Of a DNA stretch of 64,000 nt, positions 29,905 to 39,994 are shown in pieces. Source of the stretch: Heptranchias perlo (Eukaryota). Made by a program: the position numbers and the translations under genes. The stretch covers positions 14,322,001 to 14,386,000 of the forward strand of contig NC_090359.1 in assembly GCF_035084215.1 (NCBI RefSeq), written 5' to 3'. Under the pieces are notes generated by a model, which was not told the DNA's origin, searched no databases, and saw nothing but the letters and a program-made list of their open reading frames with translations. How positions within the stretch are numbered: position 1 is the stretch's first letter; each line of letters opens with the position of its first letter.

Positions 29905-29974
29905 CTTTAAATTAACTTTAACAAAACTAAACAACTCTATTGAAGCAAGAAACTGAAAAACAGCCACCCAAAGC

Positions 29975-30200
29975 TCCATATTTATACTGCTGGTTAATCC
30001 TGGGCGTGGCAGCCTAGATGATGAGTGACAGTTGGCAATACCCAATCAGAAATTACATCCTCTCTCAGAACACCAATCAAGAAAAGGGAGGAGGGGAGAT
30101 GACACCCAGAGCCAGTCAGAACTTTGAAGGAGGAGCATCATTGGCTGACAATTCAATAAAGATCCAATTGCTTTGACTTTCCTCAAACTGTAAAATCTGT
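29975..30200 (-). promoter_or_regulatory. Ferritin-1 promoter (TATA plus CCAAT boxes)
   Basis: TATAAA at 29981-29986 (minus); CCAATC at ~30042 and ~30073; ATTGG at ~30140. Confidence 0.7.
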
Positions 30201-30412
30201 TTCCGTGACCGGTGGGCACCGCAGGGACTGGAGTGCATCCTGGATCGATGTAATAAAATTATAATTTGACACTTATTTTGGGTTTATTGATTTATTGCAC
30301 ATAAACACAACCAAACCCCCCTCCCCTTCTTATAAAAGGGGGGCCTAAAACACAAAAAAAGGAAAAGCAAAAAAACCATGGCTGCTCTTCCATCCCACAC
30401 TCCAAAGAAAAA
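30200..30412 (+). mobile_element. Tx1 3' fragment with 8-bp TSD and a short extra 3' segment
   Basis: Starts TTCCGTGACCGGTGGGCACCGCAGGG; same 3'UTR as other copies; TSD AAAATCTG at 30192-30199 and 30413-30420. Confidence 0.85.
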
Positions 30413-30665
30413 AAAATCTGATCGTGACCATATTCTTGACCATAATCGACCTTTCTTTGATGGACCAATAAGGGAGACTCTGGGTTGCCCCAGGATCACC
30501 AAACATAAACCATCACAAGTGGCCCTCTCAGGGCACCACTAATATTGGATGGTCCAATCAAACTGAAAAGATACCAAAATAAGCATCAAGTGCCACCAAA
30601 AACAACAGGATACTTTCCCAATTAAATCAGGATTCTATTATTGATGTCTGAAAGACAGTCTATAC

Positions 30666-35044: not shown

Positions 35045-35355
35045 CTTGTATTTATACTACTGGGACAGCCTGCATTTACACAGGGTATGACATCACCAAT
35101 GATGATTGACAATCCCTGATAGCCAATCAGGAATCTTCCATGAATCCAGGCACCAATTAACAAAGGAGAGAGGGGGCGAGTTGATTCCCAGAGCCAATCA
35201 GAGCTTTGGAATACAGGCAGGATTGGATGATTATTCTGTGATGTCATTGCTGTTGTTTTCCTCAAAGGACTGATCGGCTCCTTGGATCCAACAATGGCCT
35301 CCAATGTCATCCCAGTTATTGAGTCCTCAAACTGAATCTGATAACATCTCTGTTC
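35045..35355 (-). promoter_or_regulatory. Ferritin-2 promoter (TATA plus multiple CCAAT/Y-box motifs)
   Basis: TATAAA at 35051-35056; CTGATTGGCTAT (minus, 35119-35130) and further CCAAT motifs; aligns to the ferritin-3 promoter. Confidence 0.7.
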
Positions 35356-37190
35356 CCAGAATCAGAGCTTCACAACATATATCAAAGAGATCGATGAGTT
35401 TACAAATGGAAATCCCATCCCGTAGATGGTGTCGAGCACATTTGGTTCTGAGTTATCCTGTCTCTTGGACAATTGATGGGCATCTTGGTGTGTCCTGAAA
35501 GAGTCCGTTATACCCAGATTCACAATGTTGATCACCGCAATAGATTGAAGGAGACTGACCTTCACCAGACAGTCCGCAGTGAGTCCGCAAACCAACCGAC
35601 AACGAGTCGGGGAAATGGAAATTGGATCAGTTGGGATCGTCAAACAGAACTCTGTTGCTCCATCACTGTAAAGTGCGATGTGGAGTTTTATCCCCATGAA
35701 ATTTAGAACCTGTAAAGTCCAGTGTTTAGTTTGCACTGTTTATTCATCTCCTGCAAATCTCGAGTCTGTTGTGAGGAAAGGTTTTATATCTGATATGTCA
35801 ACTGTCTCCTGTTTTCAAGACCAATGTTGCCTGATCTGGTGAGTATGTTCAGCATTTTCTGTGTGTTTGAGTTTTCCAGTATCTGCAGTATCTTGTCCCT
35901 CTCCTGTTGTATCTCTGGTCCAACTATCAGGCATTGAATACAAGGATCACAAAGCCTCAAGAACAGAGAAGAGTGAATTGCATAAAACTTACACCAAAAC
36001 AGGCTGTTTGGCCCAACCAGTTCATGTTGGTGTTTATCTTTCACACAAGCAGTAGTCTTAATCCCATAGGCCTACCCTGTTATCCAGTCTTGCTTATACA
36101 GACATCCTCCATCCCCTGCGAGTCAAGCCAATGTTTAATTTGTAGGTAGTGTAACCATGTATAACAGATCCCTTTGTCTGCAACCTCAGTCCAAGAGAAT
36201 ATTTATGTAGTGGGCTCACAAACTTTATGGTTTCATTTCTGATACCTTCAGGAAAAAAAAATCACACTATTTGTGGGTTAAGGGCAGTGTTTTTGTACAA
36301 GTTGTGGTAGTTAGAAAGAATACATGAAGTATGGAAGATAATGTACAGTAACTATTGGATTACAATTAACTTGTGGCTCCATTTAACAGTTAGTAATGCA
36401 ATGATCAAAAGGAAGGCAGTTTAAGTTGTTGGGTGATAGAAATGAAATCAAATGATTCCTCTACCAGCACAGGTTACCCAACAACAAACACCACAGGACA
36501 GACTGCAGTTTGGTGTTTTCTGCAAACAGCTGGTTTACTCAAACACAAAGAATGGGCAAATATTGCCCTGGATGAGGGAACGTTAAACAGGACAGTCTGA
36601 CCAAAGGAAGACTCTAGGGTTGTCAACAGTATACTTTGTACAGGCCACAACTCGAGCAACCTAGTGAGTGACTTATGGCATTAGACTACAGCAAAATTGC
36701 AGGGATCCCCTCCCTTGTCCTGACATATTCATCTTTCTCCAGCCACACCTCCCCTTTTGTTGTTTTAAAGCACGACATATTGATGTTGTCTTGCTTGCAG
36801 ATGTTATGAAAACCCCTTTTCTGCAGGAATTGTTTACTGAGATTGTAGTTGTAGAAATTATGTATTTCAGGCATCCCAGTAACAATTTGGAGATGTGATC
36901 ATAACCATCCTGGATTGGCACAGAGTCAAGTCAGGAAGCTGGACCAGGAGGGGTTTTTATATTTTTACACCTGGAGAAAGTTCTAACTTGGATCATAAGT
37001 TCCTCAGCTGGGTGTGGTGCAGTGGGTAGCTTTGTGATCTGGATAATCAGATCAGATACTTAATTATACAACAAAGACAAACCAGTTTGATGAATAGCTT
37101 TTATTGCCATGTACAACAGGTGAGAAAACTGGAAAATAACCACAAGCAAAGCATTCACCAAGTATAGAACTAATGGTTATAGAATCCCAG

Positions 37191-39922
37191 TCAATGCAGG
37201 CTGTGCTTGTCAAACAGGTACACTCCCATGCCATTCTCAGGGGCTCCCAGTCTCTTCAGGTTGGTGATGTGATCTCCAAGCTTCTTGATCATCTTCACTT
37301 GTTCATCCAAGTAGTGGCTCTCCAGGAAGTCACACAACTGGAAGAAAAATATGAAGTACATTAGCTCAGAGGAGACAATATCCAGGGTCTGAGCTTAACC
37401 TCCCCTGGGGATTATTCATGATCCTCTTCTGGACTGGATAACTGGTACAACTCCTGCACAGATTGGTGGATTGTGTGTCAGATTGCATTACTCCTGGAGG
37501 AAATATATTTATTAATTTAGAGTTGGAACCACTGATCAGTATTTAAAAAAGAATTTACTGGAGTGCCCTAAACCCTTAATGCACTAACCCATTTTAAGAA
37601 GATTCCAGTGTTGCATTCTCTTGTGAAAGATCAACACAAAGCTACTGGATAGAGAAACATTTCTAAATATCATCACAGATTAAGCGGAGAGTCTTCAAAT
37701 CACCCAAAAACAAACATACCAATTGTTGGCAATGGTAGCACTCGTGCCAGAGATTCAAGTCCACTCCAGAGAGTGGAGCACAATCCAAGCTCACACTTCA
37801 CTGCAGAAGTGAGGGAATGCTGCATGGTCAGAAGGGCCATCTTTCAGATGAGATGTTAACCAGAGGCTGCATCTGCCCTCAGCTGAATGCAAAAGAACCC
37901 CTGGCATTATTTGAACAACAGCAGGGGAGTTTTCTCCAGTGTCCTGGCTAGCAGCCCTTAACCAACTAACAGATTACCTGGACATCACTGTGGGTGGGAC
38001 CTTGCCATGTGCAAATTGTCTGCCCTGTTCCCTCATTACACCAGTGACTACACTTCAAAAATAGCTTGTTTGCTGTAAAGCACTTTGAGACATCCTGAAA
38101 AACTATATAAATGCAAATCCTTTTATGGACATTAAGGACTTACATGAGGGTCTGTCCTCTCAGTGGACAGTTTGTGCAGATCCAGCAGACTCTGGTTCAC
38201 ATTCTTCTCCATCTGCAGAGCTCTCTGCATCACCTCCAGACCATTGCTCCACTCATCCTGCTCTGGCTTCTGGAAAGGGAAGATTAAGAATGGAGAAAAA
38301 ATTATTCTAGTCAACAATTAAATAAGTGGTTAGTATATGAAATTGAAAATTACTTGTCCTTGAGCATAACAGGCATTAGTAGGATCACAAGTCAATGTCA
38401 CTTCTAGATTCCCCAAACCAGGGGACCACACAGGTTCTACTAGTCTGTTCATCCTAGGAGATACCCTGGGAATGAGTTGTTGCACTTCATTCACAGCAGT
38501 ATATGCTTTCAGGTATCCCAAGAAAGATCATTCCAATGAGGTCTAACTAGCACTAACACTTCCTTGCTTTTAAATTCTGTGCCTTGGGATGAACCCAATT
38601 AGTCTTTTATTCCACCTACAAGCTAACTTGACATTTGTCCTCGAGACTCCCTAATCCCTTTGCTCATACTGCCATCTGATGTGGACGACTTCATCAAACT
38701 GCATCGACCATCATAATCATCCACTTGCTCCCTCAATTTTTGCTCTTCAGAGCTCACTATGCCACTATTTGCAATTACAGAGCATTAGCACTAATTGTCA
38801 TGATCTACTCAAAGTTGATCGATTTGATCCCAACTCTGCCTCCTGCTCCACACAGTTTTGCTGGTGTCACAAGGTTACTTCTAATTTCTCACTTAAATTA
38901 GAGCCTGAAATCTCCTATTTTGAGGATCCATTTTTATAATATTAATCCTCCTCCAGACAACTCAATTGAAAATCTATTGAGCAAGACCAAACTAGTCCAC
39001 TTTTCACAAAACCAAGGCAATTCTTCAGTTTGCTGAACCGAACCTTGATGTCCTCCAAGATGATTCGGCCCCCACGCCGATTCTGGAATTTCAGCAGTTT
39101 CTCAGCGTGCTCCCGTTCCTCATGTGACTGCTCCTTGAAGAACTCAGCAAAGTGACGCAGGGCAACATCATCCCGGTCAAAGTAATAAGACTAGAGAGAT
39201 AAAATGGAAGAGTCAGGTCAGACAGAGATCTCATTAATGGCCAATTCAAAATGGCAGCAACATCACAGTAGACAAATTACCCATTCTCTGCCACAGTGCT
39301 TGGAATTAAGGGGCTCAGTGTCTAAAAAAAAAGCATTTTTCTTAAAAGTCAATCTCACTTTGCTTCATTGATCTTTACTGAATATGTTGAAAGTCCCTCC
39401 CTGTGAAGTAGCTCAACAAGACAAGAGGTTGTAGTAATAGAAAACAGGAAAGCAATAATGCTTTTGGATTTAATTTTCATTTCCACATTCAACCTACAGG
39501 GATGAGGGAGACTAGAGAAACTGGGATTGTTCTCCTTAGAACAGAAAAAGTTAAAGGGAGATTTAATGGAGGTGTTCAAAATATATGAAGGGTTTTGATA
39601 GAGGAAATTAAGAGGAACTGTTTCCACTGGTAGGTGGGTCAGTAACCAGAGGACAGAGATTGAAGATAACTGGCAGCTCAGAACCAAAATCAGAAAAAAA
39701 ATTGGGAGGGTCACAGAGGTACACTCCAAAGCCAATTCATTTTCAGAGAATTCTACCTGCTTAGATTAAAATGACACCACAGCCATAATTTTGAAATAAT
39801 ACCTCAGATAGAAAACTCACCATAGAAAGATAAACATAGGAGGAATAGAGCTCCATATTGATCTGCTTGTTGACACCATCCTCACACTCCTTGTGATAGT
39901 TCTGACACACTTGGGAGGCCAT
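37191..39922 (-). CDS. fth1: Ferritin heavy/middle-type subunit, copy 3 (173 aa, 4 exons)
   Basis: Exons 39821-39922, 39044-39190, 38144-38269, 37191-37337; GT-AG; ends DKHSLH*; AATAAA near 37100. Confidence 0.95.
37725..38125 (+). mobile_element. SacSINE1/DeuSINE-like SINE in ferritin-3 intron 3
   Basis: Aligns by eye to 25192-25562; 3' end TGAGACATCCTGA...TATATAAATGCAA. Confidence 0.7.
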
Positions 39923-39994
39923 TTTAACTTTTACTATTAACCACAATCACACTTCAAACTGCAAAAACAACCTAACCTCTTCCCCCACAAGCTC

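Follow-up and report, generated by a model that had tools for sequence, protein, structure and literature searches.

Background

Shark ferritin genes occur in large clusters. A Greenland shark preprint describes more than 150 ferritin copies, of which the largest cluster has ovary-specific RNA, gives 104 plus 118 ferritin calls in about 4.1 Mb in its comparison of Greenland and white shark clusters, and reports an age of at least 250 million years for the shark clusters (bioRxiv 10.1101/2024.09.09.611499). The 64 kb stretch of Heptranchias perlo DNA analysed here (the window) contains three ferritin genes, copies 1 to 3 (g1 to g3), and is like those clusters in carrying multiple full-length copies at a similar density. 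The preprint names its copies FTH1 and FTL, whereas the window proteins form a class of their own outside the FTH1 clade. The window genes also appear to lack a functional iron-responsive element (IRE) and to have homogenised exons only, while the main text of the preprint is silent on both, with no match for 'IRE', 'iron' or 'gene conversion'. Ferritin, FTH1 and IRE have no match in another preprint on the Greenland shark (10.1101/2025.02.19.638963), and no paper addressing whether shark ferritins carry an IRE was found, subscription journals and bioRxiv supplements being outside the reach of the search.

Canonical FTH1, FTL and the teleost H and M genes share four exons, the ferroxidase ligands and a cap-proximal element position with the window genes (PMC4117605). 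The window genes differ from canonical vertebrate ferritins in an IRE predicted to be non-functional, an inferred 5' UTR of only 50–57 nt, Met144 and Val167. Lesions of the same kinds (loop, C-bulge and deletions) free human ferritin from IRP in hereditary hyperferritinaemia-cataract syndrome (PMC8196845), however the FTL lesion is a disease allele of one gene and the window has a fixed state in functional paralogues. The fthl27 expansion of a hadal snailfish resembles the array in its tandem duplicates and high expression, but its 14 copies are recent and active in most tissues (PMC10746142); the text of that paper has no match for IRE or ovary.

High levels of ferritin mRNA occur in the follicles of zebrafish and in the ovaries of other vertebrates, and ferritin has been reported in amphibian eggs, snail eggs and schistosome yolk (PMC1488847). 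The yolk ferritins of Schistosoma and snails are like the role proposed here for the window genes, which is egg provisioning outside IRP control (PMC1488847; bioRxiv 10.64898/2026.10.23.761458). Oocytes of snails are described as taking up yolk ferritin that the midgut gland has secreted (bioRxiv 10.64898/2026.10.23.761458), whereas the window proteins have no N-terminal extension. The window ferritins would have arisen separately from these invertebrate proteins, from an IRE-bearing vertebrate gene. Snail yolk ferritin is not known to carry an IRE.

Gene structure and promoters

Each window gene has four exons and three introns (Table 1), which is the common ferritin organisation (PMC4117605). 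Coding sequences, splice sites and poly(A) signals are intact in all three. The seven residues that we take to be the ferroxidase ligands (E27, Y34, E61, E62, H65, E107 and Q141; human-H numbering from a PDB alignment) are kept in all three proteins, which bears out the preliminary description of intact coding sequences and ligands. The 3-fold-channel residues C130, D131 and E134 are likewise retained. The proteins (173–176 aa) align with the cytosolic H chain from residue 2, and by this alignment none of the three has an N-terminal extension able to be a signal peptide. The genes are surrounded by transposon debris and tRNA copies, at a density of three ferritin genes in 64 kb, and no host gene for synteny was recognised in the window among the 17 of 45 long ORFs scanned.

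Table 1. Features of the three ferritin genes (positions in the window)
Feature	Position	Strand	Remarks
g1 (copy 1) ferritin CDS	27351..29904	-	exons 29904-29803, 28544-28398, 27985-27860, 27506-27351; 176 aa
g1 AATAAA poly(A) signal	27209..27214	-	
g1 inferred 5' UTR	29905..29954	-	50 nt
g1 IRE remnant	29929..29951	-	retains 5' arm and C8 (29945); altered loop, 3' arm missing
g1 TATA box	29979..29986	-	
g1 proximal promoter	29987..30186	-	four CCAAT/ATTGG boxes
g2 (copy 2) ferritin CDS	32743..34967	-	exons 34967-34866, 34209-34063, 33450-33325, 32895-32743; 175 aa
g2 AATAAA poly(A) signal	32603..32608	-	
g2 inferred 5' UTR	34968..35024	-	57 nt
g2 six-codon upstream ORF	34994..35014	-	within the IRE remnant, 10 nt from inferred cap; start context weak
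g2 IRE remnant	34998..35020	-	retains CAGUG and 3' arm; C8 missing, stem register shifted
g2 TATA box	35049..35056	-	
g2 proximal promoter	35057..35256	-	six CCAAT/ATTGG boxes up to 260 nt from TATA
g3 (copy 3) ferritin CDS	37191..39922	-	exons 39922-39821, 39190-39044, 38269-38144, 37337-37191; 173 aa
g3 AATAAA poly(A) signal	37100..37105	-	
g3 inferred 5' UTR	39923..39973	-	51 nt
g3 collapsed IRE remnant	39953..39969	-	g2-type UTR with 6 nt deleted
g3 TATA box	39998..40005	-	
g3 proximal promoter	40006..40205	-	four CCAAT/ATTGG boxes; 88% identity to g2 promoter

The TATA element TATAAATA is identical in the three genes, with its first T at 29986, 35056 and 40005 on the minus strand. Start sites are inferred rather than mapped, and were placed 32 nt downstream of this T. 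Up to 260 nt from the TATA there are 4, 6 and 4 CCAAT/ATTGG boxes in g1, g2 and g3, against a mean of 0.69, with four or more present in 4 of 246 tiles. The g2 and g3 promoters are identical at 176/200 positions and those of g1 and g2 at 128/214 columns, yet the CCAAT boxes of the latter pair stay in register over this background identity of about 60%. This agrees with the TATA and multi-CCAAT promoters claimed previously. The accompanying Y-box argument for oocyte expression is not supported: the 7 matches to CTGATTGG in the window do not exceed chance (14/100 shuffles), and promoters with multiple CCAAT boxes are not known to be specific to oocytes.

Loss of the iron-responsive element

The preliminary description had reported three differently decayed IREs. 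All three strings are present on the minus strand, each within 1–2 nt of its earlier placement, and each remnant begins 3–5 nt after the inferred start site of its own gene. Local alignment to the 30-nt ferritin IRE printed in PMC5561112 was compared with shuffles and window tiles. The copy 1 remnant matches the published IRE at 17/19 nt, with nothing as good in 5000 shuffles or 7486 tiles, although it is weaker under end-to-end alignment (19/5000 and 26/7486). By local alignment the copy 2 remnant is weak (126/5000 shuffles and 49/7486 tiles as good) and that of copy 3, taken alone, is not significant (521/5000 and 312/7486). Copy 3 counts as a remnant because its UTR is homologous to that of copy 2 (42/57 columns identical; 0/2000 shuffles). 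By this alignment it arose through deletion from a UTR like that of copy 2, therefore there are at most two decay lineages rather than three independent decays. A search with a 17-nt IRE motif found copy 1, together with an unrelated match with two mismatches at 9007. The C-N5-CAGTG pattern occurs in the window about as often as chance predicts (33 times, against 38.8) and in none of the three UTRs. Copy 1 carries a true and unmistakable IRE remnant at the cap, and the absence of the IRE is therefore a derived loss. In salmon the H and the M ferritin each bear an IRE, and M is the orthologue of L (PMC4117605), so either parent gene would have had one.

Judged by scans and base pairing, none of the three genes has a functional IRE. 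The Rfam IRE models give no match at gathering score in the whole window, nor at E<=10 in 29800–40100, in a window that held no positive control; this is a check that had been proposed with the original claim. A rule scan (C8, a 5-bp upper stem, and a canonical or variant loop) has no match in the three 5' UTRs or the three spliced mRNAs. In the three 1.5-kb upstream regions it finds a single non-canonical match, upstream of the copy 3 TATA, and no canonical IRE within 1.5 kb of any of the three ATGs. When 5-nt loops are also permitted the scan recovers the reference IRE, and nothing from the TATA to codon 8 of any gene. The defining features of the IRE, a six-nt CAGWGH loop and C8, are described in PMC8196845 and PMC5561112. 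The apical loops UAGAGU (g1), CAGUGG (g2) and CAGUUU (g3) all depart from CAGWGH with its C1–G5 pair, that of g2 through a G at position 6, which is barred by H. Five pairs are required in the upper stem; g1 has one with a 6-nt loop or three with a 5-nt loop, g2 has one Watson-Crick and two G-U pairs, and the g3 stem is broken. An unpaired C8 five bases 5' of the loop is present in g1 only, with U in g2 and g3. Folding of the three UTRs is no better than that of shuffles (z -1.8 to +1.2).

It is very improbable that residual or non-canonical IRP control persists. This would be likeliest in copy 1, which keeps C8 and the whole 5' arm and, with loop base 6 taken as deleted, can fold an AGA triloop that a U-G pair closes. 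Deletion of loop base 6 leaves binding unimpaired, and the canonical loops include CAGAGH (bioRxiv 10.1101/524991). Even in this best case, copy 1 has 3/5 upper-stem pairs with two U-U mismatches beside C8, a pair probability of 0.02 and a forced fold of +4.5 to +5.6 kcal/mol, the reference IRE folding at -8.4 kcal/mol against +4.5 for copy 1 in the 5-nt-loop register. IRP1 binding is weak or absent where upper stems are unstable (bioRxiv 10.1101/524991), and C8 is missing from copies 2 and 3. Loss of the IRP brake from these ferritin genes is well supported at the sequence level, and the escape from IRP repression proposed before stands as far as this loss of the IRE. Decay of the copy 2 remnant has also created the upstream ORF, which could lower translation of that copy.

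The remnants differ and resemble ordinary drift, which would fit a passive loss. In that case translational control would not matter where the genes are active, or each copy would be under weak selection within an array of more than 100 genes; conversion would repair the exons only, and nothing would have been gained. The introns and 3' UTRs have drifted freely too, and with gaps taken as single events the g2–g3 UTR (42/57) shows no clear excess of divergence over the promoter (176/200). Faster-than-neutral UTR change between g2 and g3 was sought, and is not convincing. Against this, an identical TATA and CCAAT boxes in register have outlasted the IRE, therefore non-coding elements are under selection here and the IRE is not. 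Passive loss is considered unlikely. The pattern of kept promoter boxes and decayed IRE shows a specific release, in which relaxed and positive selection are not separable.

Homogenisation of the exons

The exons are 95–99% identical among the three genes (dS 0.05–0.08, dN 0.015, dN/dS 0.18–0.29), whereas the intron cores and 3' UTRs do not align, with intron-core scores of 20–30 at the level of shuffles. Recent whole-gene duplication is rejected, since none of 100 simulated introns scored this low at divergence up to 0.3. The identity reaches 5–15 nt into the introns and ends near codon 170. Exons that are nearly identical beside intron cores and 3' UTRs that do not align point to exon-limited gene conversion, a signal absent from the preliminary description. 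RNA-templated homogenisation is disfavoured by the presence of all introns, the extension of identity into them, its end near codon 170 and the unrelated 3' UTRs. DNA-level conversion within islands of retained homology would keep the subunits alike, and may sometimes copy promoter–UTR blocks, such as that common to copies 2 and 3. The contrast of exon and intron offers a clear example from nature of concerted evolution limited to exons.

Conversion can keep ORFs open without selection, and the copies could then be silent or little used in their neighbourhood of transposon debris and tRNA copies; likewise, with start sites inferred from the TATA, the true 5' UTR could lie further upstream and carry an IRE. 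Both are highly doubtful. The DNA around the exons has diverged, yet each gene retains promoter boxes, splice sites and a poly(A) signal of its own; dN/dS is 0.18–0.29, and no canonical IRE was found in the 1.5 kb upstream of any ATG.

Protein class and phylogeny

The window proteins are nearest to other Heptranchias proteins (99%), g1 being 99% identical to Heptranchias P0019. The array clade in the tree has 51 rows (support 91/93) with many near-identical paralogues per species, and clusters at 90% identity comprise 180, 138 and 127 member sequences (not to be read as gene counts). Despite the reported age of at least 250 million years for the clusters, the array proteins group by shark lineage, with 91/94 support for the Heptranchias group, outside which one of eight Heptranchias rows falls. 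The FTH1 clade (99/97 in one tree; SH-aLRT 96 in another) excludes the window proteins, which on this phylogeny are a shark ferritin class separate from FTH1. The array adjoins turtle FTL (support 86) on a long branch, and the window proteins have 65–77% identity to canonical vertebrate ferritins. FTH1 orthologues and a second low-copy ferritin class are also present in cartilaginous fishes and could do the iron-regulated somatic work. The NCBI name 'oocyte isoform-like' is discounted as evidence for an oocyte role because FTH1 orthologues (P0078, P0130) bear the same name.

All seven ligands are present in 35 of the 51 array proteins, these rows being cluster representatives that over-sample outliers. 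Met is found at human-H position 144 in 48/51 array proteins and 0/14 others, and the residue in 27 non-array ferritins is Ala, Ser, Gly or Leu. In the lineage of the window proteins, position 167 is Val. The Met144 of the array is a further observation not made previously. It sits one turn from the ligand Gln141, where it may change catalysis; no literature on a role of ferritin position 144 was found.

Probable expression in the ovary and proposed role

The ovary-specific Greenland shark cluster suggests, independently of the window, that these genes are expressed in the ovary, whether in oocytes, as had been proposed, or in follicle cells. The link is one of family: the window genes would belong with the Somniosus ovary cluster, and no Somniosus protein is among the matches listed. 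The explanation favoured here, and thought probable, is that these are three old, functional, IRE-free members of the array (the three array genes read as DNA), producing an ovary ferritin that is set by transcription and dosage and acts as an iron sink. Members of the array beyond these three may still have an IRE. The window genes probably supply bulk ferritin for the egg regardless of iron level.

In such a scheme, transcription and gene dosage would govern output in place of iron. In the ovary, and most likely in the growing oocyte, the short-leader mRNAs would be translated even at low cytosolic iron with IRPs active, and the constitutive, ferroxidase-active cage would serve as the sink. 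By established IRE/IRP logic, low free iron would keep IRP on, so that transferrin-receptor mRNA is stabilised, while active IRP would also repress IRE-bearing ferritin and ferroportin. This feedback loop would favour net iron loading for the embryo, and yolk lipid would be shielded from iron-driven oxidation.

The 'iron stockpiling' of the preliminary description does not follow directly, as loss of the human FTL IRE is reported to give excess ferritin without tissue iron overload (PMC8196845). The same observation agrees with a protein that mainly guards against oxidants or ferroptosis, or that is a maternal apoprotein made in bulk; in either case the cages would be largely empty and the IRE lost for iron-independent synthesis. 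Overexpression of fthl27 from the 14-copy snailfish expansion lowers ROS in cells (PMC10746142). A change of catalysis by Met144, close to Gln141, would also fit such a function. Such a function is nevertheless improbable given the seven ligands with C130, D131 and E134 kept in all three genes, and the ferritin reported in amphibian and snail eggs and schistosome yolk (PMC1488847). The roles of antioxidant guard and embryo iron store are not exclusive.

Implications

The IRE is held to be near-universal in vertebrate cytosolic ferritin genes and has even served to tell real genes apart from pseudogenes (PMC4117605), whereas the window genes are intact, intron-bearing and by prediction IRE-less. 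If the iron-sink explanation is true, a very large, slowly growing egg gains iron capacity without iron-triggered translation, and the reading of shark ferritin expansions moves from longevity and stress towards reproduction. More tentatively, sharks may have an IRE-free array of more than 100 genes and more than 250 million years that uses the IRP loop as an oocyte iron pump, with exon-limited conversion and a Met144 chemistry of its own, as the vertebrate counterpart of yolk ferritin. Were this so, the pump would have evolved by breaking a switch and multiplying a gene, and Met144, near the second iron site, would alter catalysis or release.

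Ferritin genes and their surroundings

Exactly three ferritin genes were found in the window by tblastn and self-comparison, arranged as a minus-strand tandem with a spacing of ~5 kb (g1, g2 and g3, or copies 1, 2 and 3). Each is split by GT-AG introns into four exons (102, 147, 126 and 147–156 nt), has an uninterrupted frame of 173–176 codons and carries an AATAAA located 85–136 nt past the stop. Among the best 120 of 254 protein matches, those nearest to exon 4 come from sharks, at 94–98% for the top Heptranchias and Pristiophorus matches, and the copy 1 protein is 99% identical to one Heptranchias match (P0019). 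The trio is flanked by LINE-type retrotransposons, with reverse-transcriptase, endonuclease or esterase domains in 4 of the 17 long ORFs scanned.

Features located in the window, in window coordinates
Feature	Position	Strand	Remarks
g1 coding sequence	27351–29904	−	
g2 coding sequence	32743–34967	−	
g3 coding sequence	37191–39922	−	
g1 3' UTR	27350–27190	−	
g2 3' UTR	32742–32584	−	
g3 3' UTR	37190–37081	−	
Copy 2 upstream ORF	35014–34994	−	six codons, arisen inside the IRE remnant
Match to IRE 17-mer	9007–9023	+	2 mismatches; repeated stretch near tRNA-Asp, outside the ferritin genes; taken as chance
LINE retrotransposon	40924–45026	+	long ORF1 and endonuclease ORF; adjoins copy 3 promoter
LINE retrotransposon	59945–63627	+	esterase (GDSL/OSK-like) ORF1 and 980-codon endonuclease/reverse-transcriptase ORF
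Seven tRNA genes or pseudogenes	1122–12688 and 52083–59236		Asp, Glu, Phe named by ARAGORN
Large inverted duplication	742–3321 vs 55593–53009		95% identity; several of the seven tRNA loci lie inside such duplications
Direct duplication, 2.8 kb	19769–22572 and 46268–49126		93%; flanks the ferritin trio on both sides
Tandem repeat	5665–6201		54-nt period; several frames open; weak Pfam matches look spurious

IRE remnants in the leaders

Differently decayed iron-responsive elements (IREs) had been described in all three 5' UTRs, and the strings in question are present in each leader, offset by only 1–2 nt. With start sites inferred at 32 nt 3' of the TATA box, the leaders of copies 1, 2 and 3 are 50, 57 and 51 nt long and the remnants begin 3–5 nt past the inferred start. 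The Rfam check for an IRE gave no match. A rule scan found no IRE in the three UTRs or in the spliced mRNAs, as did a second variant of the scan run with a positive control. Silent genes, or UTRs longer than these inferred leaders, are very improbable alternatives; no canonical IRE was found within 1.5 kb upstream.

The remnants were compared with the ferritin IRE printed in PMC5561112, with 5000 shuffles and 7486 window tiles as nulls. Copy 1 is identical to this reference at 17 of 19 nt, which was equalled by no shuffle and no tile. The copy 2 match was equalled by 126 shuffles and 49 tiles, and that of copy 3 by 521 and 312. The reversed IRE, as a control, scored at chance level in all three copies. 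At the level of sequence, this proves that copy 1 descends from an IRE and is suggestive for copy 2. Copy 3 does not stand as a remnant on its own match; it is counted as one because its leader is the copy 2 leader minus 6 nt (0/2000 shuffles), in a promoter that is 88% identical. The g1 and g2 leaders are also related to each other (11/2000), which would allow one ancestral IRE loss for all copies.

A canonical IRE requires a bulged C, an upper stem of five pairs and a six-base loop (PMC8196845, PMC5561112, PMC4041422). The position of the bulged C (C8) is a U in copies 2 and 3. IRPs tolerate deletion of loop base 6, and IRP1 binding is weak or absent where upper stems are unstable (bioRxiv 10.1101/524991). 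If loop base 6 of copy 1 is read as deleted, C8 is retained along with three pairs and an AGA triloop, and this copy is less ruined than in the register of the preliminary description. Residual IRP binding, which these features might favour, is very improbable; beyond the three pairs there are two U-U mismatches, with pair probabilities of 0.02 and an energy of +4.5 to +5.6 kcal/mol when the fold is forced, vs −8.4 for the reference IRE. It is very likely that none of the three genes has a working IRE. The upstream ORF of copy 2 has a weak start context and lies 10 nt from the inferred cap.

Promoters and 3' UTRs

The TATA box is identical across the three promoters, and four CCAAT-type boxes are in register in all of them, two being intact in 3/3 and two in 2/3. 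Loss of the IRE is specific, since these boxes are kept despite a g1–g2 promoter identity of only ~60%. Passive decay of the IRE, to which the differing remnants might be put down, is considered unlikely beside such retained boxes. The promoters are CCAAT-rich relative to the window, but this richness alone is no evidence for oocytes. NF-Y boxes occur in somatic promoters. The 3' UTRs are short (~110–160 nt) and mutually unrelated, with no shared maternal-mRNA signature among the three; a CPE-like TTTTAT is found in copy 2 alone.

Concerted evolution of the exons

The exons undergo concerted evolution, which the preliminary description had overlooked. They are 95–99% identical, with dS of 0.051–0.083 and dN of 0.015 over 170 codons. 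No similarity beyond the shuffle range was found in 9/9 intron-core and 3/3 3' UTR comparisons. Simulated introns scored as low in 0/100 cases at each divergence from 0.08 to 0.3, and in 88/100 at 0.7. The copies are therefore old, yet the ancestry of their exons is recent. Identity reaches 5–15 nt into the introns (~40 nt at one g2–g3 acceptor) and stops near codon 170. Exon 1 groups g1 with g3 (1 difference vs 5 for g2–g3), and the promoter groups g2 with g3. Gene conversion at the DNA level, restricted to homology islands, would fit these patterns best, although the likeness of the exons could in principle also stem from very strong selection at synonymous sites.

Proteins of the array, the shark multi-copy class to which g1–g3 belong, cluster by shark lineage, with one Heptranchias protein outside its group. 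Residues such as Glu120 and Val164 (g1 numbering) are present in 11/11 Heptranchias and window proteins and in a minority elsewhere. Codon 164 lies in exon 4 and corresponds to human-H 167; 14/51 array proteins have Val at this position, where Glu is otherwise conserved.

Protein class and conserved residues

A first tree combined the three window proteins with 62 of 117 named matches, retained at 160–200 aa with at least 155 residues aligned (three unnamed matches being left out). The window proteins fall inside a 51-member shark clade (support 91/93) and are excluded from the FTH1 clade of skate, chimaera and amniote H chains (99/97). In a second tree, built from 41 selected proteins together with the same three, cartilaginous-fish ferritins fall into three classes, namely FTH1, the array (support 92) and a second class of low copy number (96). 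The array adjoins FTL with a support of 86, on a long branch that leaves its placement unsure. The second class is conserved in sharks and rays (matches P0192, P0198, P0207, P0213, P0218, P0169 and P0194, not in the window). It may be an IRE-bearing somatic relative, with Heterodontus and Chiloscyllium members on a contig as long as the array's.

The full set of seven ferroxidase ligands is preserved in g1–g3 and in 35/51 array proteins. With human-H numbering checked on a PDB alignment, position 144 (codon 141, exon 4) is Met in 48/51 array proteins vs 0/14 others, and in 14/14 array vs 0/27 other proteins of the second tree. Met144 sits one turn from the ligand Gln141, at what we take to be a variable site-B residue that is Asp in the frog M chain. 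In copy 1, Arg has given way to Trp at codon 60 in exon 2 (human-H 63), a codon of CpG type. Among the 51 array proteins this position is R in 30, W in 10, C in 5, Q in 4, H in 1 and P in 1, and it is a mutation hotspot between ligands.

Possible role in the egg

In the Greenland shark, 155 'FTL' and 179 'FTH1' copies are reported, ~80% of them in three clusters that are syntenic with white shark and date back 250 Myr or more, the RNA from the largest cluster being specific to the ovary (bioRxiv 10.1101/2024.09.09.611499). The array and its ovary expression are described in this preprint, and invertebrate egg ferritins outside IRP control were already known. The main text of that preprint makes no mention of IREs, iron or gene conversion. 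Zebrafish follicles are rich in ferritin mRNA, and ferritin has been described from eggs of amphibians, snails and schistosomes (PMC1488847). IREs are present in all salmon H and M chains (PMC4117605). The literature search turned up no account of IRE loss, whether in shark ferritins or in a functional vertebrate ferritin array, of exon-only homogenisation or of Met144.

The feature itself is real, and on sequence grounds it comprises functional-looking genes, conserved promoter boxes and an apparently dead IRE. The preliminary description went on to propose escape from IRP repression and iron stockpiling in yolky oocytes. Iron accumulation would be the weakest step, because human FTL IRE mutants lose the IRE without iron loading (PMC8196845); IRE loss by itself would not be enough for loading. 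A role as an antioxidant or apoprotein, to which this observation would lend itself, is improbable in genes with intact ferroxidase ligands. The whole chain, from dead IRE through ovary transcription and iron-independent translation to an embryonic iron store, is rated as rather probable. Ovarian transcription of many array copies, probably by the growing oocyte, would yield mRNAs that are translated irrespective of iron. The resulting cages would draw down free iron. By established IRE/IRP logic, IRPs would then be active, favouring uptake and holding down IRE-bearing ferritin and export. The outcome would be safe accumulation of iron for the embryo.
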